Shown in pieces: positions 44,580 through 63,685 of a stretch of DNA of 64,000 nucleotides (position 1 is its first letter; each line of letters starts with the position of its first letter). Made by a program: the position numbers and the translations under genes. Under the pieces are notes generated by a model that had not been told where the DNA came from, made no database searches, and saw nothing but the letters and a program-made list of their open reading frames with translations. Origin of the DNA: Candidatus Omnitrophota bacterium (GTDB lineage: Bacteria; Omnitrophota; Gorgyraeia; Gygaellales; Profunditerraquicolaceae). The stretch lies in assembly GCA_043813255.1 (NCBI GenBank), contig JBDRLG010000126.1, forward strand, positions 2,882-66,881, written 5' to 3'.

Positions 44580-46015
44580 TTTAAATTTTGTTTTCTAAAC
44601 ATGGAAATTAATAATTTTGTTCCATTCCAATAAAAATTCATCAGTTTTAAAAAATAATTATTCTTGATAGATTTAATAATAAATGACGGGTTTAAATAAA
44701 ATTTAATATAAGCTTTTTTAATTAAAAATTTTAAATCTTGAGAACTTAAATCCGGTGTATTTAGTACCGGATTTTCGGGAAGAAATGTCCAGTTTGACCA
44801 GTTTTGATGATGCGGGATATATCCTTTTTCTAATGATAATCTATAAAACTCTGTTCCTACTAATGGAAGAGCTATGTAAAAATCAGCGGCAGTGGGTTTA
44901 ATTACATTTAGAAATCTTAAAGTCTCTTTGAAAGTTTGTTTAGTTTCTCCCGGGTAGCCTATAATAACACATGCCGTTGCGGCTATCCCTATTTTGTGCG
45001 TTAATCTGAAGGCCTCTTTAATTTGAGCCAGAGTAAATTGTTTATTCATGGCATTTAAAATTTGTTGAGACCCTGATTCTACTCCAAAGCGTAATAAGCG
45101 GAATTTCGCTTTTTTTAGTTTTTTTAATATGGGTTCATCAACAGAATCGACCCGCAGCATGCAGGTAAGATTAAGATTGTAATCTCTTTCTATTAAGCCA
45201 TCCAGTATTTTAAATAGCCGGGGTTTATTGGCTAATAAGCAGCTGTCGCTTATCTCAATGCATTTTATATTGTGTTTTTTGACTAATAAATCAATTTCAC
45301 TTAATATATACTCCGCGCTTTTAAAATAAATACAATTACCCCAAACACTTCTTATTCCGCAAAAAGTACAATTATAACGGCATCCTCTGGATGTAAATAA
45401 ATTTGTATACGGGCTCAACTCAATTTCTTCGTAAGACCAAAAATGATGTAATTTGATTCCGTATTTGTTCATTGGTAAAAGGTGATAAGCTGGAAAAGGC
45501 AATTTATCCAGATTTGTTATTCTTTCTCTTACTGGATTAAATTTCATATGTCCGTTATCTCTATAAACAAGCCCTTTTACTTTAGAAATATCTTTATTAT
45601 TTTGCAATGTTTCTAAGAGTTCAAATAATGTTATTTCTCCTTCTCCGATTATCCCAAAATCAATGACTTTGTATCCAGCCATAGTTTCTAATGGCAGAGC
45701 GGAAAAATGAGGCCCTCCCATAATACTTATGCATTTAGGGTTTATTGCTTTTGCTATTTTTAGGATATCTATTGTTTGAAGGAAGGTAGGAGTCAATGAA
45801 CTAACTGCAATTGCGTCAAAATCTTTAGGAAGATATTTATGTAAATCTTCCAAGAGAATATTATCAACTGCTGGATCAAATATTTGGACTTCAAACCCTT
45901 TATCTAATAAAAAAGCAGCTAATCCCGCCAGATTTACTGGAGGCGTTTTTCCAAATGATTTACTAATCTTCGAGTATAGATAATGATGAGGTATACCGAC
46001 AAAAAGAATTTTCAT
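44576..46015 (-). CDS. B12-binding domain radical SAM enzyme (second copy)
   Basis: 479 aa. The N-terminal B12-binding Rossmann-like domain is followed by the rSAM core FTSRGCRYNCTFCG. It is paralogous to 18898-20316. Confidence 0.85.
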   Translation of the reverse strand: MKILFVGIPHHYLYSKISKSFGKTPPVNLAGLAAFLLDKGFEVQIFDPAVDNILLEDLHKYLPKDFDAIAVSSLTPTFLQTIDILKIAKAINPKCISIMGGPHFSALPLETMAGYKVIDFGIIGEGEITLFELLETLQNNKDISKVKGLVYRDNGHMKFNPVRERITNLDKLPFPAYHLLPMNKYGIKLHHFWSYEEIELSPYTNLFTSRGCRYNCTFCGIRSVWGNCIYFKSAEYILSEIDLLVKKHNIKCIEISDSCLLANKPRLFKILDGLIERDYNLNLTCMLRVDSVDEPILKKLKKAKFRLLRFGVESGSQQILNAMNKQFTLAQIKEAFRLTHKIGIAATACVIIGYPGETKQTFKETLRFLNVIKPTAADFYIALPLVGTEFYRLSLEKGYIPHHQNWSNWTFLPENPVLNTPDLSSQDLKFLIKKAYIKFYLNPSFIIKSIKNNYFLKLMNFYWNGTKLLISMFRKQNLK

Positions 46016-46016
46016 T

Positions 46017-47033
46017 TTAAAGTAATATTTTTCTTATTAAATGTAAAATATCCAGCTTAAAAGCCATTAAATAATTTAATTCTATTGTGCCGCAAAATCC
46101 ACAACCGCTACATGGCGGCAAATCAGGTAGATTATTAAATGCCTCTTTGAAGCCAACCTCTGCGCAATTGGGAATTTTAGTATCATATTTAAGGCGGTCA
46201 CAAGGAGAAATTTCTCCATTTGCTGCAATCATGCAAAATATCTTGCCTCCCCAGCATTTTAATTTTTCATATTGAGGCCAGTTATATATATGATGAAGGC
46301 CGCGTAAAGAATTCCTTAATAGAAAATTATTTTGTTTTTTATAGGAGATAAGCTTATTTATTGTTTGTTTAAAAAGAGATTCCAAAGGTTCTATCGAATC
46401 TAATTTTCCTGTCGTATTCTTGTACTCTATTTCTTTTAAAGGTTGAAAAGCTACAATGGTATTAAACTTTTTTGCAATAGCGAGAATATCATCAATATAT
46501 TTAATATTAAATTTAGTTAAAGTAGTAGTAAAAATAAAAAATATTTTATTAGTTTGTGCGCATGAAGCAGCATTTATTGCCCAATTATAGCTTTCTTTTT
46601 TTCCTCTTACTAATTCATTAATATCTGCAGGGCCATCTAAACTTATTTTGAGTAAATCCAAAGCTTTTAGTTCTTTTGCTTTTTTTTCAAAAAGATAACC
46701 GGTGGAATTCATCTCGGGAGAAATCCCTAATCTTTTGCAATAGGTTATAATATCTCCTATATCTTCTCTTAGTAAAGGTTCTCCTCCGCTAAAGGAAATT
46801 TTTTTAGTTCCACACCTTTTGATTTCTTCTAAAAGTTTAAAAATTATTTTTGTTGGAAGCTCTTTTTCACTGGGTGATTTCCAGATTTTACAATACTCGC
46901 ATTTAGAAGGGCATTTTTCCGTAAGCTGCCAGCGTATTGCCAAAGGGGTCCTTTTATTAAAAAGTTTAACTTTAAAAATTATATTTAAAGCTTCTAATTG
47001 TTTTTTGTAATTTAATCTTGTTTTTTTTCTCAT
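46017..47033 (-). CDS. Radical SAM protein with SPASM/twitch domain (paralog family, divergent cluster motif)
   Basis: 338 aa. The cluster motif here is LTEKCPSKCEYCKIW (Cx3Cx2C). The C-terminal Cys set is CWGGKIFCMIAANGEISPC...CSGCGFC. Confidence 0.8.
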   Translation of the reverse strand: MRKKTRLNYKKQLEALNIIFKVKLFNKRTPLAIRWQLTEKCPSKCEYCKIWKSPSEKELPTKIIFKLLEEIKRCGTKKISFSGGEPLLREDIGDIITYCKRLGISPEMNSTGYLFEKKAKELKALDLLKISLDGPADINELVRGKKESYNWAINAASCAQTNKIFFIFTTTLTKFNIKYIDDILAIAKKFNTIVAFQPLKEIEYKNTTGKLDSIEPLESLFKQTINKLISYKKQNNFLLRNSLRGLHHIYNWPQYEKLKCWGGKIFCMIAANGEISPCDRLKYDTKIPNCAEVGFKEAFNNLPDLPPCSGCGFCGTIELNYLMAFKLDILHLIRKILL

Positions 47034-47120: not shown

Positions 47121-48672
47121 TTAATTTTCCCTACTAATTATTACTGGAGGAATAATACATTTATATATATTAACGCCATTAAATTGTTTCTGCTCTATAA
47201 GCTGGTAGAATGTAGTTATATACTCTTTTATGCCATTTGCAGTACCTTCATAAACTGCCCATCGGCTAAGAAAAATCCAAGCGCAGGTATTCTTTTTAAT
47301 GTTTTGAAGTTTTATTAATTGTTTTAATTGTTCAGTATTATTTATCCCCAATATCTTATTAGGCGCCTCATTATATTCAAAACCTCCCAGGATTAATTGT
47401 ACGCCTATTTTTTTATCAATATCCAACTTGCTTGTTTTTAAATATTTTAACCCATTTTTACCATAATATCCTAATAATCTGGCTTGTTTAGCTAAAGCGA
47501 TAATTATTATATCATCTTTTTTTTATATTTTCATTAATATAACCTATAGCTTCCTCCCAGTTTATTTTTAATTCTTTAGTGAAATAATAAATTAAAGAAT
47601 TAATAGTTAATAATAATATAGTGAAAATTACAATTTTTTTAAATTTTAATTTATTTATACCTGCCGCAATAATAATAAGGAATGGGGGTAACGCATAAAT
47701 AATATATCTAATAACATATATAGGAAAAAAAATAATTGAAATAAAGAAAGGGATGAAAATTGAGCTTAACCATAAAATAATCAATTTTAGATTATTTTTA
47801 TACTGGGGTTGTTTTAATAAGGATAAACCAAATAGAAACAATATTCCAAACACATAGACTAGATAATGGGGTATTAATAGAAACTTAGAATTTATTTGTA
47901 AATCATTACCCCCGTAATTTTCTGCACCATAACAAAAAGTCTTAAAAGTTTCTATTAGAGTGTTTAATCCAGGCCTTTTAATCCAATTGGTACTGGTTCT
48001 AATCCAAGGGTCATTAATTAATGCAAAAAATATTGGTATAGCCCAAAGCAGGAAGAATGATAACAGAATTAATTGTGATATTATCCAACGCCTATTTTTT
48101 TCTTGTTTATGTATGATAAAAAAGAAAATATTTTGTATAAATATGACTAATATCCCAAAAGAAAATGTATATAGTAATAAAATATTAATTAAAATAATAA
48201 GGAGATACTGTTTTATTCTATTTTCTTTAATTAGTTTTATAAATATAAGCATAGAACATAAAGATAAAAACAAGAAAAGACTGTAGTTTCTTATTTCTTG
48301 GGAATAGAATATATGAATAGGTGAGATGGATAGCAAAAAAGCGCTGATTAAGCCTATTTTTTGATTAAATAAGATTCTAGCGATTTTATATATTAAGAAG
48401 ATGGAACATATCCCAAAAATAGCTGATAAATATCTTAGTGCGGCTTCAGATAGCCCGAAGCACTTAATCCAGTATTTGAGCGCCCAAAAATAAAAAAAAG
48501 AATTATGAAATTTAGTAAATACTTCTATCGGGTTCCTCATCGCTAGATTAATAGAACCAGCTTCATCAAACCACAAACTTTCTTTATCTAAATTGTAAAT
48601 ACGCAGAATAGTGCCTAATAATAAAATAAAAAACAAACTAAAGAATATAGCTTTTGTATTTTTCATGCCCAT
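47121..48672 (-). pseudogene. GT39/ArnT-like GT-C glycosyltransferase interrupted by a frameshift in an A8 homopolymer
   Basis: The 386-aa ORF 47512-48672 carries LWFDEAGSINLAMRNPIEVF...SQEIRNYSL (first-loop DE motif, PMT_2-like) and ends NENIKKR-stop at 47512. If the A8 run at 47517-47524 were A7, the frame reads NENIKKDDIIIIALAKQARLLGYYGKNG... and continues directly into the downstream 101-aa ORF (47121-47426). That ORF therefore looks like the displaced C-terminal domain. Confidence 0.6.
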
Positions 48673-48674
48673 TA

Positions 48675-50339
48675 TTATATATGCCGCAAGATCATATAAG
48701 AACCAAATTTTTTCTCAATTTTATAGTTTGTTTTAATGAAATTATCAAAATCTAAAGCGCCGCTACTTTTACTGCTTGCATTTGGTTCATTTATTTCTTC
48801 TGCTCCTTCCCAGAGTATTACATAAGGTACGTAAATTTGTCTAAATTTATTAATTATTTCTCTTTGGACCTCGTTAGTATTTATTAGACCAGGATGTAAT
48901 TCGTGATATCTAATTGCGCAGTTTCTATCAGAAAAGAAATAAAAAATTATATCATTATAAACTATTTTGTCATGCCTTAAATTACCAACAAATATTTTAT
49001 CATTTGGTTTTGTGTTTTTTTGAATATATTGAATAACTTGATTTTGTGAATGAGAAAATTCAGAATTATCACAGTACATCCCTATAGCCCTGCTGTGCAT
49101 ACATATCGAATGATTTTTTATGGAGTATTTTGGAGGCAGATTATTAAATTTTATCATGCCAGGGAATATTAATAAAATAACTGTTAAAAAACAGGCTAAA
49201 TGAGCAGTAATCTTTTTTATGTTGTTTTTATCCGCGTCAAAGCTTCTTTTAAATAAGTTGTTTAATACTACAAAAAATAAAATTATAACTAAAGTTAGAG
49301 TAGATAAAAGATGTTCTATGTCTGCTCGCAGGCTAGAGTAAAAGAATAAATATAACAAAAATAGAGATAGAAACGATATTAGCCATAGATAAATATCTTT
49401 ATTTTTTCTTTTTAAATATATATATAAGTTAAAACCGGTTAAGAGAAAAATAAAAATAGGAAAATAAAAAATTAGATTATCTAATTGAAACTTTGGAAAA
49501 GGCAAATCTCTGACTTTAGGGTATATAAATATTGGAAAGAGCAGAGTATCTTTAATGAAATCATTAAAAGCTGAATTAAACATAAAATAAACTAAGAGAG
49601 GTAAAATAATAGATAAAAAGCCTAAAAACAGTAATATTTTTGTTTTAAAAATCTTAATAATTAATTTATTATTTGGTGTTATATTTTGACAATGATTTAA
49701 TTGTTGAAAAAAAATAGTAATAAATAATGAAATAAAACAAAAAAAACCAAAATCTTGCCTAAATAGGGTAATGATGCCGGATAATGTCCCGCAGATAAAC
49801 AGCCATAGTTTTCTATTAGAGGTTAAAAAGTTACAAAAGCTGATAGCGCATAAAATAAAAAATAATAAAGCTAACTGCGTAGGGCGGTTAAAAACTATAT
49901 AAAACCTTAAACAAATTAGAAGAAGTATAGATGTAAAAAAAGCGGGTATTCTTGAGTATAATTTTTTAATAAAAAAATATGCAGCGCATATTATTGAACT
50001 TAAGATTGTAATTGAAAATAATCTTTCTGTCTTTATGCTTATCCCGAATATTTTAAAAATCGCGGCAATTGTGTAAAATTCTGCCGGCCCATAAAGTGTC
50101 CAGAAGTCTTTATAAGGGATATCGCCATTTAATATTCGAAGAGCGCCATATGTAATTATTCCTTCATCATAAGGGTACGTTCTAAAATCAAGATATTGAT
50201 ATCCATATAAAAAACATATAAAAGATACAAAAAATAACAAAAAAATTATACTTTTATCAAAAAAGCAGTTTTTTTGCAGGAAAGTTGTTTTTGGTAAAAG
50301 ATCCCCCTTCTTTTTTATAATGAAATATTTAAAAATCAT
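48675..50339 (-). CDS. GT39/ArnT-like GT-C polytopic membrane glycosyltransferase
   Basis: 554 aa. The early periplasmic loop reads YPYDEGIITYGALRILNG...DFWTLYGPAEFY, with an acidic DE motif. About 12 TM helices are followed by a C-terminal soluble domain. Confidence 0.55.
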   Translation of the reverse strand: MIFKYFIIKKKGDLLPKTTFLQKNCFFDKSIIFLLFFVSFICFLYGYQYLDFRTYPYDEGIITYGALRILNGDIPYKDFWTLYGPAEFYTIAAIFKIFGISIKTERLFSITILSSIICAAYFFIKKLYSRIPAFFTSILLLICLRFYIVFNRPTQLALLFFILCAISFCNFLTSNRKLWLFICGTLSGIITLFRQDFGFFCFISLFITIFFQQLNHCQNITPNNKLIIKIFKTKILLFLGFLSIILPLLVYFMFNSAFNDFIKDTLLFPIFIYPKVRDLPFPKFQLDNLIFYFPIFIFLLTGFNLYIYLKRKNKDIYLWLISFLSLFLLYLFFYSSLRADIEHLLSTLTLVIILFFVVLNNLFKRSFDADKNNIKKITAHLACFLTVILLIFPGMIKFNNLPPKYSIKNHSICMHSRAIGMYCDNSEFSHSQNQVIQYIQKNTKPNDKIFVGNLRHDKIVYNDIIFYFFSDRNCAIRYHELHPGLINTNEVQREIINKFRQIYVPYVILWEGAEEINEPNASSKSSGALDFDNFIKTNYKIEKKFGSYMILRHI

Positions 50340-50364
50340 CTGGTTCTTTTAAGTTTTTCTTCTA

Positions 50365-51411
50365 CTACTTGGATATTTTTATTAAAAAAGAGTTTATAAA
50401 AAAAAGCCCTATGAATACAGGTATCATATACTCTATAAAAAAAATTAAAATGCCTAGACTTAAAAGTTCTTCTCGTGTTCCATAAGTATAAAAAAATAAA
50501 AGTATTGCTGATTCTCTGATGCCTATACCGGAAATACTTATTGGCAGATTCGATATTAAAATCACTAGTGGAATGAATAAAATAATTATATAAAAGTGAA
50601 TATTAAGCCCCAAACTTTTGCATAAAATATAACATATAAAAATTTCAGAAAATTGAAGAATAATAGAATATATCCATAAGAAAATAATTTTCTTATTTTC
50701 AAGGTTATTATATATCGATACGAATTTTAAAAAAGTGCCGCATAGTTTTTTGTTTATATTATTTAAAAAATATAAAATCTTATTTTGTGTTCCCCCCGAT
50801 TTTATAACTAAAAAAAATAGTAAAATAAATATACTACTAATAAAAAGGGCATAGAAGATATAGCTAAACTCTCGCAATAAACCAGAGTTCTTAAATAAAA
50901 AATAAAAGATTGATCCTATAGAAATAAAAGTTAATAATGCTAATATATTTAATATAAGGCCAAATATTACCGCATTAATGCCAAATAAAAAGGAAAAATT
51001 TTTATATTTTTTCAAATAGATAATTTGGCTGAATAAATTTATTTTAGATGAAGGCAGAATTTTTAACGGGGTGCTCCCCATTTTCATTAAAAATACTTCT
51101 TTAAAGGATATATCGCAATTTAACGCGTTTAATATGCGTTTAATTCTTTCTGTGGCTATTATCATATTAGTAACCATGGATAGAATTATTGCTGCAACTA
51201 CTAGTCTTAAATCTATTTGCTGTATATTTTTCCCAAGTTTAAAGATATTTACGTTTGAAAATAATAAAATGATTATAAAACATGTAATCATTAAAGAAAA
51301 AATATTCTTTAAAAAAACGATATTTTTTTTAAAGAATAAATACGGATTTGCCTTTCGAGGATTATCTGAATTGTTGTTGACAGGGATAATTATCTTATTT
51401 GTGGTTTCCAT
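50365..51411 (-). CDS. Flippase-like / lysylphosphatidylglycerol-synthase-TM-domain family membrane protein (UPF0104)
   Basis: 348 aa, polytopic. The C-terminal ISGIGIRESAIL matches the conserved GxGxRE motif of this family. Such proteins often partner polyprenyl-P-sugar GT2 enzymes. Confidence 0.55.
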   Translation of the reverse strand: METTNKIIIPVNNNSDNPRKANPYLFFKKNIVFLKNIFSLMITCFIIILLFSNVNIFKLGKNIQQIDLRLVVAAIILSMVTNMIIATERIKRILNALNCDISFKEVFLMKMGSTPLKILPSSKINLFSQIIYLKKYKNFSFLFGINAVIFGLILNILALLTFISIGSIFYFLFKNSGLLREFSYIFYALFISSIFILLFFLVIKSGGTQNKILYFLNNINKKLCGTFLKFVSIYNNLENKKIIFLWIYSIILQFSEIFICYILCKSLGLNIHFYIIILFIPLVILISNLPISISGIGIRESAILLFFYTYGTREELLSLGILIFFIEYMIPVFIGLFFINSFLIKISK

Positions 51412-51529
51412 TGTAGTTTTTAATAGATCTTGTATCAGGGTTTAAAATAAAATAAAAACAGATGTTATAAATAAAATATTAATTGTCATGATTTGTTTGA
51501 ATTGATAATTTTTTAAATTGGTTATCATT

Positions 51530-52414
51530 CTAGTTAGATATTATTTTATTTTTTATTATCTTAGAGGATAATTTTGCTATTTCATAATAGGCTTTTACGC
51601 AATACTTAGTGTTTGTTAAAAGCATAAATAAATTTCTCCATAAATCATAAACGAAAAAAGCAATAAATAAATTAAACAATCCTGAAAAAGATTCATTTTT
51701 TAACAGCATTAGATATCTGTTTTTCATATTCAGGTATTGCGAGAACCTATCTTTTTTTTGAGATATACCTCTATTGTGCAAACATGCAGCTGCCGGAAAA
51801 TATAAGGTCCGCCATTTCTTTTTCTTCAGCCTCCAGCTTAAATCCACGTCTTCAACTAAACAAAAAAAGTCCTGATCAAAATATTGTTCATTTTGTTTTA
51901 TAGAATCTAGCGCTTGTTTTCTATATAGGGCCGCGGCCGCGCAGGCGCCAAATATATACCGGCACCTGTTAAATTTATCCTGGTTTTGTTTACCCGCGCC
52001 TATGTCATAAAATCTCCTTAAGAAAGAAAGATGTATGCCTGCTGTATCAATCTTATCACCGGATATATTCAATACTTTAGGCTGTATAGCCCCTATTTTA
52101 TCATTTAAAGTAATGGCTTGCCTTATTTGGGCTAAAAAACCCTTAGTTAACGTTATATCGTGATTTAAACATAAAATATAGCTGCCTTTTGCTTTGTTAA
52201 TGCCTTGGTTATATGCTTTGCTAAAACCAGAATTTGTTTCATTCTCTATTAGAGCAATCCCGTGGTAATCTCGTAGAATTTCCTTGGTATTATCTTTGGA
52301 GTTATTATCTACAATTATAATCTCATAGTTTTTGAAATCTTGAGAAAAGATTGATTCTAAACATTCTTTAATAAAATTTCCGGAATTGTATGTTGTTATA
52401 ACTATAGAAATCAT
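51530..52414 (-). CDS. GT2 glycosyltransferase
   Basis: 294 aa. Contains ISIVITTYNSGNFIKECLESIFSQDF...IIIVDNNSKDNT and a DXD region. Confidence 0.8.
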   Translation of the reverse strand: MISIVITTYNSGNFIKECLESIFSQDFKNYEIIIVDNNSKDNTKEILRDYHGIALIENETNSGFSKAYNQGINKAKGSYILCLNHDITLTKGFLAQIRQAITLNDKIGAIQPKVLNISGDKIDTAGIHLSFLRRFYDIGAGKQNQDKFNRCRYIFGACAAAALYRKQALDSIKQNEQYFDQDFFCLVEDVDLSWRLKKKKWRTLYFPAAACLHNRGISQKKDRFSQYLNMKNRYLMLLKNESFSGLFNLFIAFFVYDLWRNLFMLLTNTKYCVKAYYEIAKLSSKIIKNKIISN

Positions 52415-52753: not shown

Positions 52754-55700
52754 TTATCTATTGTATATTTGTTCAATTCTATTCTTCATTTCATTGCCAA
52801 TTTTACTAAAATTAAGATTTTTTTTAATATCCGAAGCAGCAATATTTCCCATTGCTTCAGCTTTGGCTTTATTTTCATAAACATACCGCATCAATTCCGT
52901 AGCATGTTCAATACTTGGCTCTGCCCAAATATTTCCTTTGGTGTAAGGGCCTGAGTTTTTTTGAATTTCTTTAATTTTATAATTTACTAAGTAGCTGTTA
53001 TTAGAATTCATAAAATCAAGATTTCCTGAATAGTTAGTTGCTATAACCGGCTTGCCTAAATACATCGCTTCCGCCATTGTCAGGCCAAATCCTTCAGAGC
53101 GATGCAAAGACACATACGCATTGCAATGTAAAAGCAAAGCATTGATTTCATCTCTATAAAGATATTTATCAAGTATGCTTATCTTCATCATCTCAGATTC
53201 TTTTTTCATTTTTCTGAATGAATGTGGGGCAAAAGCAGAATTGGAACATTTAATCACTAGGCGAATATTGTCATTAGCGGAAAAGGCCTGTTTAAATGCC
53301 TTGATAATCGCCAAGGGGTTTTTTCTTTCAAAATAACTAAAGAAATCAAACATAAATAAGAAAATAAACTCATTTTCCTGCAAAGAAAAATACTCTCTTT
53401 TTACTTGTTTTATTGTTTTGATTTCCACGGCATGAGGAATTACTTTTACAGGAATAGGCGATTTCATGGATATTGCCTTATAAGCAAATTTACTGGGAGT
53501 CCATATTTCATCGCAATAAGAAAAACTTTTTTCCCATTTATCCGGAAAATTATTCAGTTCCCACACCCAATATCCAATATTGTATTTATTGTTAAAATAA
53601 CTGGTCCCTTTTTCCGTTACAAGTTTACTAAACATATCCGCGTTTATGTGAATAAGGTTAATGGGATAAGGATTGATTTTAGATAATTTTGAGACAAAGA
53701 AAAAATCACTCTGGCGGCTGGGGGAATGATTATCGATATTAATAATGGCTAAATTTGTGCCTACTGCCTCAAAACATTTTGCACTTGCTCGAGCACCTTC
53801 ACCTATTCCTAACTCAGTTGTTAGGTAACCGATAAGATTTATTCCATTTGGTTTATTAAACTTTTTATTTCGGGATTCGGATTTTTTTGATGAAACGCGG
53901 CTAAAAATTTCCAGCTTTTTATATAAATTCAACTCTATAATTTTTAGATTATTGATTCTCCATGAATTATTACGAAGAATAGCTTTAAGTATTTTTTTTA
54001 AAACTTCTCTAGTTTTATGGAAAAAGCTTATTTTTAAGATCGACAGATAACCATTATTATACATATTTGTGAAAGGATAAAATTTATTGATAAACGATTC
54101 ATCCAGTTTATATTCATTAATAGCATTTGATAAAAACCATCCCACAAATTTTTTTCGATCAACCCCAAATAAATTTGGATAAACAATCTGTAGATCGCTT
54201 CTTTTTTTGTATATCGCATACATAAACCTATTAAGGGTTGGTTTTTGATTATCCAGCCGCTCATTAAGCCAGTTAAAAAAACTTCTCCCTTCCGTTTTAA
54301 ACGGATTTGTAAATTTTTCGTTTTCATCATATAAATTCCAATACAGCCTTCTAATGAAATCTGGTATTTGTACACCGTTGTCAAAATAATTAAGAACACA
54401 AGGCCAATTCTTAGTTTCATCATAATTATGTGTTTTAAGCTTATTCCGATATAATTCAAAAACGCCAATCATATATTCTAAATCAACCAAAGTGAATCTA
54501 TCTTGATGTTTAGATATAACTTTCAAATCATCAGGGTTAAATCCACTAAAGTGCATAAATTTAACCTGAATACCGTCGACAGATAGATTTTCTTCGTTTA
54601 TTAAGACCTTGCGATAATGAAAATTCCAATATGCGATATTATAAGTTTTATCCCTAAGAATATGTACGCCTTCGAAAAATCCGGGAACCAGATCAATCCA
54701 TTTCTGGTCTACAAATAGCCCTTTTTCAACATCTGAAATACAATAACGTTTGAGGCGTTCTTTCCACCAAGAAAGAAGAGTTCTTGTAGTTTGATTATTT
54801 GCAAGAGCAATAAACCCTAAATTATATACACCGCTTTTTAATATTTCGATTTCTGATGGTCTTCGGGTATCTTGATAAGGCTGAGTTATATGCGGGATAA
54901 GAATAATAGAATATTTTCCTAATAAGTTTGATAATTCATTAAGATTACTAGTTATAAGTATATCCGGATCAAGAAAAATAATATCTTTTGGTTTATAGAT
55001 ATCAAAAATAAATTCTAAGAAGAAAGGTTTAACTGCTGTATTTAACTCAGTAGGATTATATTGGAAACAAAATTTATCAAACGCTGGTATTCTTTTTTTA
55101 ATTGTTTCTAATTCTATCAGAATAAATTTTTCCTTTGTAGGATCAAAATAATCGTCAATCCTGTCGGTTAAGAGAACGAAAACCCGTCCTTGATTATGTT
55201 TTAGGAATGATTCTGTAAGTACCCGTGCGTAACTTAAATAGTTTTTAGAGATAATAGTACAAATAGTTAAATAACTGTTTGAGGTATCCTCTTTCTTTAT
55301 TTCTGGTAAAGTTAATGATGCCTTATTGATTGGTTGGTGGATAAACCCCTGAATCTGTTTTATTTTCCAGAGAATTGACCATAGCGGACGCACTAAAAAT
55401 CTAAAAGCTGTAGAATTATAATAATCATTTATTTCGTGATTTTTTTTAGTTAACTCAATATTTAAATTAGCAATTTGCTCAGATAAAGTTTTAAAAAGAT
55501 TGTCTGCATAATCGTTTTTTTCTTTTAAAGCTAAGTCCCTTCTAGTAATTTCTTGATTAAGATTGTCTGCATAATCGTCTTTTTCTTTTAAAGCTAAGTC
55601 CCTTCTGGTAATTTCTTGATTAAGATTGATAAGATGTGTATCTTTAGATTTTATTATGAAATTTAGGGATCCAATTGTTTTTAATAATTCCGGTATCTTT

Positions 55701-56644
55701 TCTATTGAAATACTGTTTTCATGATTTTCAATTTTTTTTACCTCTTTAAATAGATCCCCCAAAACATCTTTAACAATATTAATTTTATGATGTTTTATTA
55801 ATTTGAGTACCAAATCAACTAATAGGGGGTATATATTTCTTTGCGCCTTAAAATTCCCTTGAGTAGTAAAATAACCATTCTCCAATAAAGCTTCGCATAT
55901 TTTTTTAGGATAATATTTAACGATTAGCAATAAACGATTTTTTTCCGTATAGAATAGGGGTAAATCTTCTTTAGTCGTACCATGATGAATATGATAGACG
56001 AAACTTTTAGGAGCACAAAAGAGTTTCCATCCTTTTCTTACCATTCTCAGAGAAATATCCACATCTTCCATATACATATTAAAATCTTCATCAAAATATC
56101 CAACGTTTTCCATAGCACTTTTTCGATAAAGAACTGCACAGCCACAAAGGCTTGTAACTTCTTTAGGATTATTAAGTGGGTTAGTATTGTCAAATGTTTG
56201 ATCAACCCAGTAAAAATTAGATAATTCTTGATGCCCCAAGCTCTCTATGGAGCCATCCATAAATAAAATTCTGCTTCCTACAGCTCCAATGGTAGAATCT
56301 ATCTGTAAACATTTCAGAAGATAAATAAGCCATTTTTTATCAACCTTGACATCATTATTAAGTAAAGCGACATACTTACCCTTTGTGGCCTTTATTCCCA
56401 GATTATTAGCTCTACAATAATTGTTAACATCATTTTTTAAAATTTTAACTTTGGAGAATTTATCTCTTACATACTCTATCGAACCATCGTCTGAACCGTT
56501 ATCGACCATAATTATTTCTATCTTGTCTTGTGGATAATCAAGTATTAATAAAGAATCAAAGCAACCTTTTAATAAATGTTTGCCATTATAGTTAACAATA
56601 ATTATGCTTACTAGAGGCAATTCTTTTGTCATTTTATCTCCCAT
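52754..56644 (-). CDS. Multidomain glycosyltransferase (GT2 - coiled coil - GT-A-like - GT4), WbbB/WbdA-like polymerase candidate
   Basis: 1296 aa. The N-terminal GT2 domain reads LVSIIIVNYNGKHLL...IIMVDNGSDDGS...LNNDV. A coiled-coil linker contains repeated NLNQEITRRDLALKEK(D/N)DYAD units. A central nucleotide-sugar-transferase-like domain reads TICTIISKNYLSYARVL...FLDPDI. The C-terminal GT4 domain has EGFGLTMAEAMYLGKPVIATNYSGNLDF. The alternative start MTKELPL at 56632 avoids overlap with the Wzt gene. Confidence 0.75.
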   Translation of the reverse strand: MGDKMTKELPLVSIIIVNYNGKHLLKGCFDSLLILDYPQDKIEIIMVDNGSDDGSIEYVRDKFSKVKILKNDVNNYCRANNLGIKATKGKYVALLNNDVKVDKKWLIYLLKCLQIDSTIGAVGSRILFMDGSIESLGHQELSNFYWVDQTFDNTNPLNNPKEVTSLCGCAVLYRKSAMENVGYFDEDFNMYMEDVDISLRMVRKGWKLFCAPKSFVYHIHHGTTKEDLPLFYTEKNRLLLIVKYYPKKICEALLENGYFTTQGNFKAQRNIYPLLVDLVLKLIKHHKINIVKDVLGDLFKEVKKIENHENSISIEKIPELLKTIGSLNFIIKSKDTHLINLNQEITRRDLALKEKDDYADNLNQEITRRDLALKEKNDYADNLFKTLSEQIANLNIELTKKNHEINDYYNSTAFRFLVRPLWSILWKIKQIQGFIHQPINKASLTLPEIKKEDTSNSYLTICTIISKNYLSYARVLTESFLKHNQGRVFVLLTDRIDDYFDPTKEKFILIELETIKKRIPAFDKFCFQYNPTELNTAVKPFFLEFIFDIYKPKDIIFLDPDILITSNLNELSNLLGKYSIILIPHITQPYQDTRRPSEIEILKSGVYNLGFIALANNQTTRTLLSWWKERLKRYCISDVEKGLFVDQKWIDLVPGFFEGVHILRDKTYNIAYWNFHYRKVLINEENLSVDGIQVKFMHFSGFNPDDLKVISKHQDRFTLVDLEYMIGVFELYRNKLKTHNYDETKNWPCVLNYFDNGVQIPDFIRRLYWNLYDENEKFTNPFKTEGRSFFNWLNERLDNQKPTLNRFMYAIYKKRSDLQIVYPNLFGVDRKKFVGWFLSNAINEYKLDESFINKFYPFTNMYNNGYLSILKISFFHKTREVLKKILKAILRNNSWRINNLKIIELNLYKKLEIFSRVSSKKSESRNKKFNKPNGINLIGYLTTELGIGEGARASAKCFEAVGTNLAIINIDNHSPSRQSDFFFVSKLSKINPYPINLIHINADMFSKLVTEKGTSYFNNKYNIGYWVWELNNFPDKWEKSFSYCDEIWTPSKFAYKAISMKSPIPVKVIPHAVEIKTIKQVKREYFSLQENEFIFLFMFDFFSYFERKNPLAIIKAFKQAFSANDNIRLVIKCSNSAFAPHSFRKMKKESEMMKISILDKYLYRDEINALLLHCNAYVSLHRSEGFGLTMAEAMYLGKPVIATNYSGNLDFMNSNNSYLVNYKIKEIQKNSGPYTKGNIWAEPSIEHATELMRYVYENKAKAEAMGNIAASDIKKNLNFSKIGNEMKNRIEQIYNR
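55496..55621. repeat. Direct tandem duplication, 2 x 63 bp (2 mismatches), inside the coiled-coil coding region of the 1296-aa glycosyltransferase
   Basis: The unit AAGATTGTCTGCATAATCGT(T/C)TTTTTCTTTTAAAGCTAAGTCCCTTCT(A/G)GTAATTTCTTGATT is repeated head-to-tail. A third partial copy starts at 55622. It encodes two 21-aa units NLNQEITRRDLALKEK(D/N)DYAD. Confidence 0.9.
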
Positions 56645-58278
56645 TTATGTGCTAAATAAACTGTCCCATGGTCTTGCTTGTTAAAAACCATTTGAAATGA
56701 ATAAATTCCATGCTGGCAGATTATGAATTTTTTATTTAGTTTGTCCCAAATTCCTGCTGAAATATTATATTTACCCGGCAACAAAGCTAATTTAGGGAAA
56801 AATATTTGGGAATTTTTATTATTGTTAATTCTATGGGTTATGCTTTGGCAATAAATTCCGTCATCTCTATAAATCCCTATCCAGAAATAAAGCTTTTTTT
56901 GATAAAGCAGGGTTATTTTACTAAAGTTAACAAGCATTCTGACAGGTTCGTTAGTTAAAAAAGTGTTTTTTTCTTTGTTAGCGCTGTTAAAGCATTTTAA
57001 AGAAATAGTTCCTGTTTTTTTAGGCTCAGGCGGATTGTCATTTCTGCGGTATGAGTTTTTGGCATAAGATATTTTGGCTGGAATGTTTAATAGCTCTTTT
57101 GGGTTATTTTCGCGGCCTTTTATAGTTAATTTGTAGCATCCATTATGATAATCATAGGCTATAGTTTCGTTTTTATCCCATACCGCTATGGATAGTTTAT
57201 ATTCTCCCGGAGCTAAAAGAATTTTTTTGTATTTTAAAATAAAATGTCTTTCTCCCGCGGTTATTTTGTTGATTTTATATCCATCAAATTCCGTATTAGG
57301 GCCGTAACAATATACCCCGTCATCCCTGAATATCGCGATTCCAAAATGGGGCTCTTTAATTTCATCTCTTACAGTAAAACGTACTTTAATACTTAAAGGT
57401 TCATGGCTTTTGATACTATATGTTTTGATCCCGAATTTATTAATGAATTCTACCGAGTTTATAATGGTTTCTTTAGTGCCGAATTTTTTGTTAAAATCAG
57501 AGATATCATCGGCCCATTTTTTTGTATTATCAAACAAAACAATATTATTAGATGCGGGACCTACAAAAAATTTTTCCGTATTAAGTAATCCGCGATACTT
57601 ATTTATCCCTTCAGCGGGACCTCCGTGGAATAATAATTTCCCATGGTCAAAAAGAGCGACATTGTCACATAGCCGTTCAATTAAATCCATGCTTTGCGTG
57701 GTTATTACGAGTGTTTTACCTGAATGTTTAAAGTCCATTAAGCGTTCATAACATTTACTTTGAAAGAGAGCGTCTCCTACGGCTAATATTTCATCAAGGA
57801 CTAAAATATCAAAGTCCAAATTAGCAATGATGCTAAATCCTAATCTAAGCCTCATTCCTTGTGAATAGCTGCCTAAGGGCATATTAATAAAATTTCCCAA
57901 TTCTGAAAATTCAATTATTGAATTTAGCTTATTTTCTAATTCTTCCCTTAAAGCCCCAAGTATAGCGCCGTTAAGGAATATATTTTCTTTACCTGTAAGT
58001 TCATCATGGAACCCAACACCTAAGTTGAATAATCCAATAATCTTGCCGTTAAGTTGAATTTCTCCTTGAGTAGGCGTCAGCACACCCGCAATAATATTCA
58101 AAAGAGTGGTTTTACCCGCGCCATTTCGGCCTATTATTCCTAGAATTTTTCCTTTATTCACTTCTAATGTTATATCTTTTAAAGCCCAGAAGTCTTTAAA
58201 TTGTTCTTTTATCTTTTTTTCTTCTGGTTTAACAATAGGATATTTTTTACTGATAGACTGGATTTTGATCATTTTCAA
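56629..58278 (-). CDS. wzt: Glycan-export ABC transporter ATP-binding protein Wzt with extended C-terminal carbohydrate-binding region
   Basis: 549 aa. The NBD has Walker A GRNGAGKTT, the signature region and Walker B ILVLDE. The ~300-aa C-terminal extension contains two similar modules: IAIFRDDGVYCYGPNTEFDGYKI...LAPGEYKLSIAVWDK and IGIYRDDGIYCQSITHRI...LLPGKYNISAGIWDK. Confidence 0.85.
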   Translation of the reverse strand: MKMIKIQSISKKYPIVKPEEKKIKEQFKDFWALKDITLEVNKGKILGIIGRNGAGKTTLLNIIAGVLTPTQGEIQLNGKIIGLFNLGVGFHDELTGKENIFLNGAILGALREELENKLNSIIEFSELGNFINMPLGSYSQGMRLRLGFSIIANLDFDILVLDEILAVGDALFQSKCYERLMDFKHSGKTLVITTQSMDLIERLCDNVALFDHGKLLFHGGPAEGINKYRGLLNTEKFFVGPASNNIVLFDNTKKWADDISDFNKKFGTKETIINSVEFINKFGIKTYSIKSHEPLSIKVRFTVRDEIKEPHFGIAIFRDDGVYCYGPNTEFDGYKINKITAGERHFILKYKKILLAPGEYKLSIAVWDKNETIAYDYHNGCYKLTIKGRENNPKELLNIPAKISYAKNSYRRNDNPPEPKKTGTISLKCFNSANKEKNTFLTNEPVRMLVNFSKITLLYQKKLYFWIGIYRDDGIYCQSITHRINNNKNSQIFFPKLALLPGKYNISAGIWDKLNKKFIICQHGIYSFQMVFNKQDHGTVYLAHKWEIK

Positions 58279-59096
58279 TTAAAAAGGTATTCGTTTATCT
58301 TGTTTTTATATTTATTGTACAGGTAAAATCCTGTTAAAAATAAAAAAAGAGAAAAAACAATCGGCACAATAATTAGGCTAAAAATATTTATTTCTTTGCT
58401 TATTAAAGGAAAAAATCCTTTTAAAAGAGTACATCTATATAAATTCAGAATTCCCACAAAAGGATTATTTATGTATATGGAATATAAAAAAGGCGAAAAA
58501 GTAGTTTTAACTAGAGAAAGCGAATAAAAAACGGGTGTTAAATAGAATAAAAATAATAATAAAAATTCTATTATATATTTTGTATCACGCCATTTTAGAT
58601 ATAAAAGGGAAAAAATTAATGCCAAGCCTGTTATAATGGTTAAATGAATAAGTATCACCAATGGCAGGAATATTAAAAAAAGAGGCAGCCCTTTTAACAT
58701 TATCAGAGAAATAATTATTAAAATAGGCAAAGATGGGAGAAAAATAATCAAATTTGCCAGTATAATAGAAATAGGTATAAAATAATATGGAAATCTTGCT
58801 TCTTTTATTAAATTTTTATTATCTATCAGGCATGAAGTCGAACTTGTTATAGAGTCTTGAAAAAAACGCCAGGGAAATGTCGCGCTCATTAAATATAGAA
58901 TAAATGGCATCTCTTTGATTTGTATATTCAAAAACAAAGAAAAGACTAAATAAAAAATTATCGCGGTAAAAAATGGCGACAAAAATGCCCAAAGAAATCC
59001 TAAAAAAGGCCTTGAGTAACGCAGTTTTATATCTTTTAGGACTAACTCATAGATTAAATTTTTTCTTTCAAATATTTCTTGTATAATAGAAAACAT
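58275..59096 (-). CDS. wzm: ABC-2 type transporter permease Wzm
   Basis: 273 aa with 6 TM helices. The layout is ABC-2 permease-like. It is translationally coupled to wzt (4-nt overlap). Confidence 0.8.
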   Translation of the reverse strand: MFSIIQEIFERKNLIYELVLKDIKLRYSRPFLGFLWAFLSPFFTAIIFYLVFSLFLNIQIKEMPFILYLMSATFPWRFFQDSITSSTSCLIDNKNLIKEARFPYYFIPISIILANLIIFLPSLPILIIISLIMLKGLPLFLIFLPLVILIHLTIITGLALIFSLLYLKWRDTKYIIEFLLLFLFYLTPVFYSLSLVKTTFSPFLYSIYINNPFVGILNLYRCTLLKGFFPLISKEINIFSLIIVPIVFSLFLFLTGFYLYNKYKNKINEYLFN

Positions 59097-59104
59097 AATA
59101 GACC

Positions 59105-60409
59105 TTATTTAGTGAATAGTTTAGAAACGTTTAAGCCTTCATAGATAGCGTCTTCCATTGACATGTATTTCCACGCCCCATAACGTCCGCAGGAGATAAT
59201 ATTATTTTTTTTAAGAAAATTAAGTATTATTTTCCTTGAAGCCGAATAATTACTGTCATAAACAGGGTAACCATATTTTATTTCATTCGCGTCTTGCGCG
59301 CAAATCCTATCATTTTTATATAGTATCCCAATTTTTTGTAAGTCTTTTTTAATAGAATTAGCCAATTCAGGTTTATTTATTAAAGAATGCCCGGGGCAAG
59401 CTGCCTCCGCGTATAGAGACATTTTTCCATTAGGTACAACACTAGAGGAAAAGTTATGATGGAAACCAACTCTAAAGAAAGAAATATCTTTTTGGGGAAA
59501 ATATACCCAATGTTTGTTTTCTAAACCGGCTTTCCTATCTATCCCTATGTTTAAATTAAAAATTGAGTTCCATTTTAATTTATTAAAAGCCATTCGTATC
59601 ATTGGAGGAATATCTTTAATTAAATGGGATAATTCCGGTAAAGGCATAGTACTAATTAAATAATCAAATTTTTCAGTATTGCCGGAGGCAGTTTTTATTT
59701 GTTTTTTTATTAGGTTAATTTCTGTTACCGGAGAGTTTGTTTTAATATGTTTTATTCTACGGCTTAAGGCCTGTGGGACACAGTTTATACCGCCGGTTTT
59801 AGGGTACCAAAAAACAGCATTGTAACCGTATTCTGTGCTATTTTTTTTTATAGCTCCTGCGATAATCTGTGTTAATGAAGGAACGGGTATATAATTCTCT
59901 AGCCATTCACAGGTCATATCTTTTAGAGGAACAGTCCAAAATTTATGATTATAGGGAATCATAAAATGTTTGGCTATTCCATTGCCTAAGGTATTATTTA
60001 TCCAATTTAAAAAATTATCACTATTTTTACCAGCCCGTTCCTCCCTTTTTGCATTAATAAATCCTGACAGGCATTCATTTTTAGCAGAAAGAGGTAATCC
60101 ATAAAGATTGGCTTGAAATGGATAAGGAATATATTCGCCTTCAAAATAAACAAAAGCATTCCTTTTGTGCTTAATCAGATTACTTTTAAGCAGGCTTTTG
60201 ATTAAGTTAAATGCGCGGCGATTCTTAAAATGCAATAGATGCCCGTCAAAGTCAAATATAAAGTTATTTATTTTTTTGGATCTGCATAGGCCCCCAACTT
60301 CTTCTTCTTTCTCAAAAATAAGGTAATTAAGTTTTTTATTTTGCAGCTCTCTTGCCAGAGTTAATCCGGTAAGCCCTGCGCCTATGATCAGTATTTTCTT
60401 TTTATGCAT
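59105..60409 (-). CDS. FAD-dependent oxidoreductase, UDP-galactopyranose mutase (Glf)-like
   Basis: 434 aa. The N-terminal dinucleotide-binding motif is KILIIGAGLTGLTLARELQ...FEKEEEVGGLCRS. The later FDFDGHLLHF resembles the Glf GPHIFH block. It sits in an ABC-transporter-dependent glycan context. Confidence 0.5.
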   Translation of the reverse strand: MHKKKILIIGAGLTGLTLARELQNKKLNYLIFEKEEEVGGLCRSKKINNFIFDFDGHLLHFKNRRAFNLIKSLLKSNLIKHKRNAFVYFEGEYIPYPFQANLYGLPLSAKNECLSGFINAKREERAGKNSDNFLNWINNTLGNGIAKHFMIPYNHKFWTVPLKDMTCEWLENYIPVPSLTQIIAGAIKKNSTEYGYNAVFWYPKTGGINCVPQALSRRIKHIKTNSPVTEINLIKKQIKTASGNTEKFDYLISTMPLPELSHLIKDIPPMIRMAFNKLKWNSIFNLNIGIDRKAGLENKHWVYFPQKDISFFRVGFHHNFSSSVVPNGKMSLYAEAACPGHSLINKPELANSIKKDLQKIGILYKNDRICAQDANEIKYGYPVYDSNYSASRKIILNFLKKNNIISCGRYGAWKYMSMEDAIYEGLNVSKLFTK

Positions 60410-61388
60410 TTAGATTTGTTTTTAGCATTTTATTGGCTAAAAATATGCTTAATAAAATTACTATTATGATTAATATAGCTGCCTGTAAATTAGAAATTTT
60501 AGTTATAATTACTCCGGAAATTGAAAAAAAAAGGCACCAGCCAAGCATAATTAAAAGCGTCTTTCTTTTTGAATAGTTAAAAGTGAGAAATCTTAATGCT
60601 AAATGGTCATTACTTTTTTTAAACGGTAATATATTTTTACTGGAGCGTATTAGTATTAAAAAAGCAGTATCAATGATAGGAAAACCCAGAATTACTAAAG
60701 GGCTAAAAATAGCTATGGAGTTATTTAAAGAAGCATAACTTATTTTTAAAGCTATAGCTGATAATACGAACCCTAAAAAATGGCTGCCGGAATTCCCCAT
60801 ATATATTTTGGCTGGAGGAAAATTAAAAATAAAAAATGCCAAAGTAGCTGCTGTTAAACATAGAGATAAGATCAGGGTGGTTATATTGATATTTAATATG
60901 GAAAGAATATAGAATGCTACGCATATAATAATTGCATTACCTGCTGTTAATCCGTCTAGTATGTCTAAATGGTTAAAAGCATTTGTAATCCCGATTATCC
61001 AGATATAAGTAATTATGATATTGATAGGCGCGCTGAAATAAATTATTTGTGTTTTAACCCCGAAAAATATCAAGAACGATGCCGCGATAAATTGTGAAAT
61101 AAACTTTACGGATATGGATAATTCATGAAAATCATCAATTATGCCAAAAACAAGCATTAGAAAAGAAGCAAATAATATCCCTAATATATCTTTATTTAAA
61201 GGCACATAAAAATTATTCGCATACAGGCAGCCTATAAGAAAAGACAAACAGATACTTATGCCTCCTATTAATGGAATGCCTTTGGAAATTAAGAGGTTAT
61301 ATTTTAAGGATATTTTTCTAAGTAAAATAACTAAAAAAATCCCTGAAAAGAAACTAATTATAATACTGCAAAGAAGATTAATTGGCAT
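60402..61388 (-). CDS. Polyprenyl-phosphate N-acetylhexosamine-1-phosphate transferase (WecA/WbpL/TagO family, GT4 MraY-like)
   Basis: 328 aa with about 10 TM helices. NAFNHLDILDGLTAGNAII matches the NAxNxxDGxDGL motif. An FIFNFPPAKIYMGNSGS region is also present. Confidence 0.8.
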   Translation of the reverse strand: MPINLLCSIIISFFSGIFLVILLRKISLKYNLLISKGIPLIGGISICLSFLIGCLYANNFYVPLNKDILGILFASFLMLVFGIIDDFHELSISVKFISQFIAASFLIFFGVKTQIIYFSAPINIIITYIWIIGITNAFNHLDILDGLTAGNAIIICVAFYILSILNINITTLILSLCLTAATLAFFIFNFPPAKIYMGNSGSHFLGFVLSAIALKISYASLNNSIAIFSPLVILGFPIIDTAFLILIRSSKNILPFKKSNDHLALRFLTFNYSKRKTLLIMLGWCLFFSISGVIITKISNLQAAILIIIVILLSIFLANKMLKTNLNA

Positions 61389-62557: not shown

Positions 62558-63685
62558 TCAAGTTATTATGGCCGGTTCAAGTAACATTTTTTCTCTGGCA
62601 TGAGCTACTTCGCAAAAATAATCAACCGGCATATCTAATGCTCCTGTTTCTAAATAAGAATGTGCGGGGCACCAGATACAGAGATTGAATAAAGGGCATA
62701 CATGGCATTTTTTTAGGAAATCTTTTTTTGTGGAACGGTTGTTTCTAACCTGCGGAACAAAATATTGCCAGGCTTGAAGAAGCGTCTCTTTTTTAAGATC
62801 AAGAATACAATCCGGGTGGCAAAGCGAAGAGCAGAGTTTAAAATAACCGTCATAACTTATTGTAAAACTTTTGGTTCCCGCGTCGCAATGAAAAATATGA
62901 TTACAGTTAAGATTAGCTAATTCAGGAATAATAAGATTATTACAATCTTTTTTTAAGGCTTGTTTACGTTCCGGATCATTTTGTTCTATAGTGATGATTT
63001 TTTTAGAATCCAGCCTTTCAGATTGTATCTCAGCGTTTCTTTTTTTATCTCCGTCAAAACGCATATGTAAAAAAGGATCAAAACGGAAATAGTCTTTAGT
63101 TCTTTTACGGCAAAATGCGCTAATTCTTGGTAATTCGTTAACATTTGAGCGTAAAGCCATCGCTTTAAAACGCGTTTTTATGCCGTTGCTAAGCAAAAGA
63201 TTTACTCCGGATAAAAAAGCATTGAAAGAACCTTTATTCCTGGTGACCTTTTCGTATGTTTCTTTAGTGGTGCCATATACAGTTATTTCAATATCTCTGG
63301 GAGGATACTTTTTAAAAAATTCTATATGTTTTGCAGTGAGCAAGGTGGCATTGGTAAAAACCGAGATCAGTAATCCTTTTTTCTTTAAATAAAGATAAAT
63401 ATCAAAAAAATCCTCTCTTAACAATGGCTCTCCCCCGGTAAGAAGGCACCATAATGCCCCTAAATCTACAGTTTGATCAACTATATTTTTTATCTCGAGC
63501 AATGTAAGTTCTTTCTTTTTTACTTGTTTATCATTTGACGGCAGGTTAATATAGCAATGCCGGCAATTATTATTACACCGCGCGGTTAATTCCAGATCAA
63601 AAGAAATAAGCTGTCTTTTATTATGGATTGGTTTTAAAAAATCTGATTTTGGTAATTTAATTTGTTTTACGAAAGAAACCGGCAT
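62558..63685 (-). CDS. Radical SAM protein with full SPASM domain (distinct from the 4-paralog family)
   Basis: 375 aa. ELTARCNNNCRHCYINL is followed by the C-terminal SPASM Cys pattern CNHIFHCDAG...CSSLCHPDC...CHVCPLFNLCIWCP. Confidence 0.85.
   Translation of the reverse strand: MPVSFVKQIKLPKSDFLKPIHNKRQLISFDLELTARCNNNCRHCYINLPSNDKQVKKKELTLLEIKNIVDQTVDLGALWCLLTGGEPLLREDFFDIYLYLKKKGLLISVFTNATLLTAKHIEFFKKYPPRDIEITVYGTTKETYEKVTRNKGSFNAFLSGVNLLLSNGIKTRFKAMALRSNVNELPRISAFCRKRTKDYFRFDPFLHMRFDGDKKRNAEIQSERLDSKKIITIEQNDPERKQALKKDCNNLIIPELANLNCNHIFHCDAGTKSFTISYDGYFKLCSSLCHPDCILDLKKETLLQAWQYFVPQVRNNRSTKKDFLKKCHVCPLFNLCIWCPAHSYLETGALDMPVDYFCEVAHAREKMLLEPAIIT

Follow-up and report, generated by a model that had tools for sequence, protein, structure and literature searches.

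An in-frame duplication of three heptads in the predicted stalk of an Omnitrophota glycosyltransferase, and its proposed role in setting glycan length

The subject of this analysis is a glycosyltransferase (GT) gene on the minus strand of a 64,000-nucleotide stretch of DNA from a Candidatus Omnitrophota bacterium (assembly GCA_043813255.1, contig JBDRLG010000126.1, positions 2,882 to 66,881 of the forward strand); we call the whole of this 64-kb stretch the window, and all unlabelled coordinates refer to it. In that part of the gene which encodes a long helical stalk we find a genuine in-frame tandem duplication of one 63-bp unit, that is, of 21 residues or three heptads, and change of stalk length in multiples of the heptad is shown to be a habit of the whole protein family, of which this duplication is one instance. 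It also seems to us rather probable, by analogy with characterised systems, that the duplication lengthens the glycan ruler of an assembly enzyme that works together with an ABC transporter.

The 63-bp array and its coding

Tandem Repeats Finder (TRF) reports, at 55496-55628, an array with a period of 63, 2.1 copies, 97% matches, no indels and a score of 252. No other array in the window scores 80 or more, and the feature thus lies far beyond chance. An ungapped repeat finder aligns its two units (55496-55558 and 55559-55621) head-to-tail with identity at 61 of 63 positions, and both programs therefore agree with the initial annotation, which had described two such units differing at two positions. 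The gene and the parts of the array are as follows.

52754..56644, minus strand: whole glycosyltransferase gene, open reading frame (ORF) of 1296 residues
55559..55621, minus strand: tandem copy 1, N-terminal in the protein, residues 342-362, NQEITRRDLALKEKDDYADNL (TRF and repeat finder)
55496..55558, minus strand: tandem copy 2, residues 363-383, NQEITRRDLALKEKNDYADNL, with one synonymous change and one D>N change relative to copy 1
55622..55628, minus strand: 7-nt start of a third copy, AAGATTG, residues N340-L341 (TRF)

Both copies are in frame, and the 21-residue unit, when read in the frame of the repeat coordinates, is NQEITRRDLALKEK(D/N)DYADNL, shifted by two residues from the unit given previously. 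The synonymous difference falls in codon 5 (ACC/ACT), and the other, GAC (D) against AAC (N), in codon 15. A partial third unit had also been claimed, and this holds only in part: a third copy does begin, but its near-identical portion extends over no more than the 7 nt listed above, a stretch that serves as junction microhomology. Beyond it lies an older unit of about 81% similarity (residues 334-354, KDTHLINLNQEITRRDLALKE), which TRF reports in a second row at 55523-55653.

It could be argued that the duplication is an artefact of assembly and that the true gene has a single copy or some other copy number, as the source is a contig from a metagenome-assembled genome (MAG) with a single copy in the databases, and as related assemblies often fail in this very region, where contigs stop at a repeat unit and a scaffold has a gap of 100 N. 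However, there are two differences between the copies, and exact direct repeats in the array region reach 27 nt at most, so that any assembler using k above 27 would resolve the array, which at 126 bp is also short enough to fit into single short reads. Moreover, the reading frame and the heptad register are both kept, and orthologs carry independent arrays with the same 63-bp period. An artefact thus appears to us exceedingly improbable, and we treat the feature as a confirmed duplication of one three-heptad unit.

The stalk helix and its length among relatives

In an AlphaFold2 model of residues 1-470, computed as a monomer with 51 aligned relatives (mean confidence score, pLDDT, of 85), the repeat is located in the middle of one long helix, with pLDDT values of 92-94 over residues 320-370 and of 86-94 over the repeat itself. 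Two features of this stalk are needed in what follows.

55418..55783, minus strand: single continuous predicted alpha-helix, residues 288-409, 122 residues, about 18 nm when extended (AlphaFold2)
55463..55495, minus strand: 11-residue insertion FKTLSEQIANL, residues 384-394 (by comparison with the canonical last unit of orthologs)

Hydrophobicity spectra of the stalk taken from the single sequence were too noisy, and we used instead tests of the heptad register against shuffled sequences together with registers pooled over the family. The former place a clear heptad coiled coil at approximately residues 331-409. Over residues 331-383 the a/d core positions are hydrophobic in 11 of 16 cases as opposed to 7 of 37 elsewhere, a result reached by 8 of 5000 shuffles; over residues 384-409 the corresponding figures are 7 of 8 and 3 of 18, reached by 26 of 5000 shuffles. 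The heptad phase shifts between these two segments in the manner of a classical stutter, owing to the insertion that directly follows the duplication, and it is because of this insertion that the window protein, alone among 15 close orthologs, has a stalk span of 0 and not 3 modulo 7. The duplication itself leaves the phase unchanged, as 21 residues make exactly three heptads.

For the pooled register, heptads were counted back from a conserved Y-x-S-x-x-F-R...P-L-W anchor in 27 proteins, which gave 519 heptads in total. Position a is occupied by L, I, V, M or F in 92% of them, in phase, and position d, three residues further on, by the same hydrophobic residues in 37% and by K or R in 48%. 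The family consensus of the 21-residue unit reads KDxxIxxLNxEIxxRDxALxx. We also observed that in a set of relatives (P0002-P0015, P0021, P0023 and P0045) two of the three d positions of this unit carry K or R, each then followed by D or E at position e, such that the hydrophobic core of the unit consists of the three a positions and a single d (L8), which makes for an unusual, periodic polar core.

That the helix might be a charged single alpha-helix, or a flexible spacer, in which case all arguments from heptads would be void, is suggested by the 35% of charged residues in the stalk region and by the many d positions at which K or R is followed by D or E; nor can an AlphaFold2 run on a monomer show pairing. 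Neither stalk lengths quantised modulo 7 nor repeat periods in multiples of the heptad or hendecad would, however, be expected of a single alpha-helix, and one heptad position stays hydrophobic in phase over hundreds of residues. We therefore regard this alternative as very unlikely. A canonical heptad coiled coil, rather than a single alpha-helix, is what the quantisation modulo 7 and the hydrophobic stripe of constant phase point to, and we infer that the stalk is oligomeric. The initial annotation, which had placed the repeat within a predicted coiled coil, is in this respect borne out both by the 122-residue modelled helix and by the heptad periodicity of the window protein and its relatives. 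When the stalk alone was searched against the PDB with phmmer, only insignificant matches to other coiled-coil proteins (augmin, SMC) were returned.

The quantisation of length is seen in all of the 14 closest full-length orthologs. Measured from anchor to anchor their stalks span 136-423 residues and fall into 11 distinct lengths, each of them 3 modulo 7, for which our own arithmetic gives a chance of about (1/7)^10, and the remainder of the protein outside the stalk is nearly constant at 1111-1137 residues. Repeats are likewise widespread. Adjacent units at least 70% identical to each other occur in 29 of the 59 family members that have both anchors, with a period divisible by 7 residues in 26 of them (21 residues in ten, 35 in five, 14 in four, 42 and 28 in three each, and 49 in one). 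At the DNA level TRF finds an array in 22 of 56 related genes, in every case within the stalk-coding part and in frame, with periods that are multiples of 21 nt in 17 of the 22 and that measure 33 or 66 nt, corresponding to hendecads, in some of the others. Two orthologs have arrays of the same 63-bp period as the window gene, one with 3.6 copies at 98% (P0007, L001) and one with 5.7 copies at 89% (P0021, L002). The earlier statement that a unit of 21 residues (3 x 7) is compatible with heptads can thus be extended to the family, in which length shifts almost only by heptad multiples, and many lineages have just gained stalk units. As for the two copies in the window, their near-identity could equally reflect recency or homogenisation between repeats; the closest relatives found are at most 57% identical in a metagenome scan and 51% identical in a genome scan.

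Because such repeats commonly break short-read assemblies, stalk genes are often incomplete or divided in MAGs: of 59 related contigs, 24 (L005, L029, L039, L041, L045 and L061 among them) stop within the homologous gene, and nearly all of these do so in the coiled-coil part. Several break off precisely where a repeat unit occurs for the second time, and in metagenome Ga0315279 an ortholog of 56-57% identity is divided between L003 (1-2974) and L005 (6001-7149), with the break in the coiled-coil repeats. One MAG contains two contigs, L058 and L059, with 99.99-100% identity over about 17 kb and no difference except at a stalk repeat (9381-9846 in L058, 9381-9686 in L059), where L058 has a scaffold gap of 100 N flanked by a duplicated segment of 60 nt; the difference could be strain-level variation in copy number or an unresolved assembly. 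At the upper end of the range the stalks of P0108, P0109, P0105, P0106 and P0056 span about 500-845 residues, which if extended would make a helix of about 70-120 nm. Omnitrophota cells have been described as very small, and a helix of that length would be large relative to them.

Domain order, exporter genes and the proposed ruler

The predicted order of parts in the protein is a GT2 domain, the single 122-residue helix, an amphipathic helix, a disordered linker, a GT8-like GT-A domain and a GT4 domain, and immediately upstream of the gene lie the two genes of an ABC exporter.

55913..56611, minus strand: N-terminal GT2 domain, GT-A fold, residues 12-244 (Pfam PF00535, AlphaFold2, Foldseek)
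55346..55411, minus strand: amphipathic helix after the coiled coil, residues 412-433, STAFRFLVRPLWSILWKIKQ (AlphaFold2, hydrophobic moment, conservation)
54425..55270, minus strand: GT8-like GT-A domain with a DPD motif, residues 459-740 approximately (AlphaFold2, match in a homolog, invariant motif)
52757..53842, minus strand: C-terminal GT4 domain, GT-B fold, residues 935-1296 approximately (Pfam PF00534, Foldseek)
56629..58278, minus strand: Wzt, ABC-transporter ATPase (PF00005) of 549 residues with two Wzt_C stretches (Pfam)
58275..59096, minus strand: Wzm, ABC-2 permease (PF01061) (Pfam)

The model of residues 1-470 shows the first GT-A fold, a short helical part, the stalk helix and the second helix; in a further model, of residues 401-1296 (mean pLDDT 84), the helix is followed by the disordered linker (residues 436-455), the GT-A-like domain, a helical region and the GT-B domain. 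PF00535 (GT2) matches residues 13-181 with 81 bits (cut-off 23.3) and PF00534 (Glycos_transf_1, GT4) matches residues 1089-1269 with 59 bits (cut-off 26.4), and the best PDB matches of the GT-B domain in Foldseek are GT4 enzymes, the top ones being 3oy2, TreT and BshA. The middle domain of the window protein itself gave no match in Pfam; its assignment to GT8 rests on a homolog, P0030, in whose middle domain PF01501 (GT8) exceeds the cut-off, and D559-P560-D561 is invariant among the relatives. We consider the GT8-like and GT4 domains to be putative polymerase modules 1 and 2, respectively. The amphipathic helix has a hydrophobic moment of 0.61, at the 99.7th percentile of the protein, and is conserved throughout the family, which makes it a candidate anchor at the membrane interface in the predicted structure. 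That the linker separates an N-terminal GT2 domain from GT-A-like and GT4 domains, as had been proposed, is what Pfam, AlphaFold2 and Foldseek show when taken together.

The position of Wzm and Wzt directly upstream, with PF14524 (Wzt_C) reaching 106 bits (cut-off 30.4) in the two stretches that follow the ATPase domain of Wzt, upholds the earlier suggestion of an ABC-transporter-dependent setting. The order Wzm, Wzt with Wzt_C and GT2-stalk recurs at 44 of 59 related loci (39 of the 51 with enough upstream sequence) irrespective of what is fused behind the stalk, and the GT2 domain, in what would be the distal position on the stalk, always travels together with it and with the Wzt_C-bearing Wzt. 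Such a place behind wzm and a wzt with Wzt_C is the one known from terminator- and ruler-controlled glycan assembly. Terminator proteins are characteristically recognised by their extended coiled coil, which bears the terminator, without exception, at the distal end, while the polymerase modules are located or recruited proximally; the carbohydrate-binding module (CBM) of Wzt binds the terminal cap and admits only capped chains, and a Wzt with modules of the Wzt_C type marks this kind of ABC-transporter-dependent assembly (PMC11231755). In WbdD, insertions into the coiled coil raise, and truncations lower, the modal chain length (PMC5082667).

One of the closest likenesses is to WbbB of Klebsiella pneumoniae O12 and Raoultella terrigena, a single polypeptide made of an N-terminal terminating GT, an extended coiled coil shown to act as the ruler and two C-terminal polymerising GTs, which is served by a Wzm/Wzt exporter whose Wzt bears a cap-binding CBM (PMC11231755). 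The terminator of WbbB is, however, a GT99 beta-Kdo transferase, whereas the distal domain of the window protein is a GT2 without assigned specificity, and the polymerase modules of WbbB belong to families other than the GT8-like and GT4 domains found here. WbdD of Escherichia coli O9a and K. pneumoniae O3 and O5 holds its N-terminal terminating domains about 20 nm off the membrane by means of a coiled coil (PMC5082667, PMC11231755), and a membrane-associated amphipathic helix comes after the coiled coil in the same order as predicted for the window protein. In contrast to the latter, WbdD has a kinase and a methyltransferase, instead of a GT, as terminating domains, polymerisation falls to a second protein, WbdA, which is brought in at the WbdD C-terminus, and WbdD is a demonstrated trimer, whereas the stalk of the window protein is a putative oligomer. 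In ORF6 of K. pneumoniae O7, too, a single polypeptide unites terminator, coiled coil and two GT modules, and ORF7 of K. pneumoniae O4 (GT137), a terminating GT that stands alone and has its own coiled coil, resembles the stand-alone GT2-coiled-coil relatives of the window protein (PMC11231755); the methyltransferase-kinase of ORF6 and the GT137 Kdo transferase of ORF7 are, however, not homologous to the GT2 domain. A phmmer search against all PDB chains retrieved generic GT2 and GT4 matches only and, at E<=0.01, neither WbdD nor WbbB, and Pfam and NCBIfam detected in the protein GT2 and GT4 only, with no kinase, methyltransferase or GT99 domain. As judged from sequence, the likeness to WbbB, WbdD and O7 ORF6 is thus one of design and not of ancestry: the proteins would be of the same functional kind but belong to different families.

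From these parallels we infer that the GT2 domain would act as a terminator, that the protein would be anchored at the membrane and that the duplication would affect chain length, in the following manner. The stalk would carry the GT2 domain at its far end and, at its base, the amphipathic helix, which probably lies on the membrane, and beyond a flexible linker the GT8-like and GT4 modules would polymerise the repeat unit on its lipid carrier. Once long enough to reach the distal enzyme the growing chain would be capped by it, by analogy with WbbB, WbdD and O7 ORF6, and the carbohydrate-binding modules of Wzt would then accept only capped chains for export. An additional 21 residues, at 0.148 nm each, would add about 3.1 nm to the stalk and bring the whole helix from about 15 to 18 nm, with the clear heptad segment enlarged from 58 to 79 residues, and the modal chain length would be expected to rise by a few sugars. 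The duplication itself would most likely have arisen by slippage or by unequal exchange between neighbouring older 63-bp units.

Several observations speak against such a ruler. Foldseek on both models returns generic GT-A (ppGalNAc-T) and GT-B (GT4) matches, and neither Foldseek nor Pfam nor NCBIfam provides a pointer to the donor, the acceptor or a capping role of the GT domains; for the GT2 domain in particular, neither sequence nor fold bears a sign of single-residue capping as opposed to polymerisation. K or R at two of three d positions leaves a narrow hydrophobic seam, stalk spans of 97-845 residues in the family could equally mean that length is only weakly constrained, and a B12-binding radical SAM enzyme encoded in the same cluster could supply a different, methyl cap. 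One may accordingly propose that the stalk serves for oligomerisation or as a scaffold only, that its length is uncoupled from the glycan and that the duplication is a neutral product of slippage, heptad multiples surviving merely because other lengths break the seam of the helix. The wide range of spans tolerated, the abundance of repeats that cut off so many related contigs inside the gene, the occurrence of the GT2-stalk module both alone and joined to partners unrelated to one another (other GTs, radical SAM/SPASM domains), and a GT2 domain without assignable terminator chemistry would all fit this proposal. On the other hand, gene order and architecture, with a Wzt that bears a CBM, a catalytic domain at the putatively distal end and polymerase modules at the proximal one, are those of all terminator/ruler systems characterised so far (PMC11231755), a Wzt with Wzt_C is a close companion of the module at the 44 loci mentioned above, and stalk length did control chain length in both systems in which this has been tested experimentally (PMC5082667, PMC11231755). 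Hence we hold a mere scaffold to be rather unlikely and lean toward the duplication as a lengthening of the ruler.

More tentatively, it is conceivable that, among Omnitrophota and neighbouring groups, the module of GT2 domain, coiled coil and amphipathic helix has in its stalk a heptad-quantised ruler open to evolution in nature, in which repeated loss and tandem duplication of units of 14-49 residues may tune the length of surface glycans between lineages and possibly strains; the locus might then be a length-contingency locus and the duplication in the window one recent step. A coiled-coil ruler of polysaccharides has so far been demonstrated by engineering in two enterobacterial systems only. 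The present family offers a natural series in which the stalks on one enzyme scaffold differ by whole heptads and measure approximately 100 to more than 800 residues, for a helix of roughly 6 to more than 100 nm. Should stalk length track glycan length, the ruler principle would extend far outside the Proteobacteria, and repeat slippage in steps of three heptads would be a simple mutational route by which the length of a surface polymer can be retuned. In the literature accessible to us we found no report of natural, repeat-driven variation of stalk length in WbbB and no description of natural, recurrent and heptad-quantised expansion of stalk repeats across a phylum. Size-setting proteins that are lengthened by in-register helical or repeat units are otherwise known from the YscP ruler of needle length, from the Lpp+21 variants of periplasm width, where the engineered addition is likewise exactly three heptads, and from phage tape-measure proteins. 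These proteins are unrelated, and none of them measures a polysaccharide.

Start codon and remaining neighbourhood

The protein is present in the databases as a single entry, MFH1441766.1 at NCBI (P0001), from a Candidatus Omnitrophota MAG, where it is annotated from Met5 with 1292 residues; in that numbering the repeat occupies residues 338-379. The stop codon of Wzt, TGA, overlaps the ATG of Met5 (ATGA), which on the sequence suggests translational coupling and a 1292-residue product, and the real start is probably at Met5 (56632).

Farther upstream of the exporter lie genes for a flavoenzyme, a WecA/MraY-type transferase and a GT4, and downstream of the glycosyltransferase gene one for a GT2. 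The transferase is likely to be the initiating enzyme.

60402..61388, minus strand: WecA/MraY-type polyprenyl-phosphate sugar-phosphate transferase (PF00953) (Pfam)

The downstream GT2 (51530-52414) belongs to a set of genes at 47512-52414 whose other products are two PMT_2 GT-C membrane proteins (47512-48672 and 48675-50339) and a protein of the LPG_synthase_TM type that resembles flippases (50365-51411). This set resembles the three-component systems for extracytoplasmic modification of glycans (PMC11127046).

Among the relatives the module of GT2 domain, stalk and helix occurs on its own or fused to radical SAM/SPASM domains or to other GTs. In many of them (P0061-P0096) a radical SAM/SPASM part is joined directly behind the amphipathic helix, and the cluster in the window contains three radical SAM genes and one B12-binding radical SAM gene (42527-47033 and 62558-63685), one of the radical SAM genes having a SPASM match in Pfam just below the cut-off. 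This suggests that radical SAM enzymes are functionally linked to the GT2-stalk module, for example through modification of a sugar or a methyl cap. The GT8-like and GT4 pair is found on its own as well, for instance in an archaeal ABC-transporter cluster, from Nitrosopumilus (L097, 1899-12385), where it is accompanied by Wzm, a Wzt lacking a CBM, three methyltransferases and two sulfotransferases, and in the fusion protein P0037 the same pair is preceded by a sulfotransferase and a coiled coil of short length.

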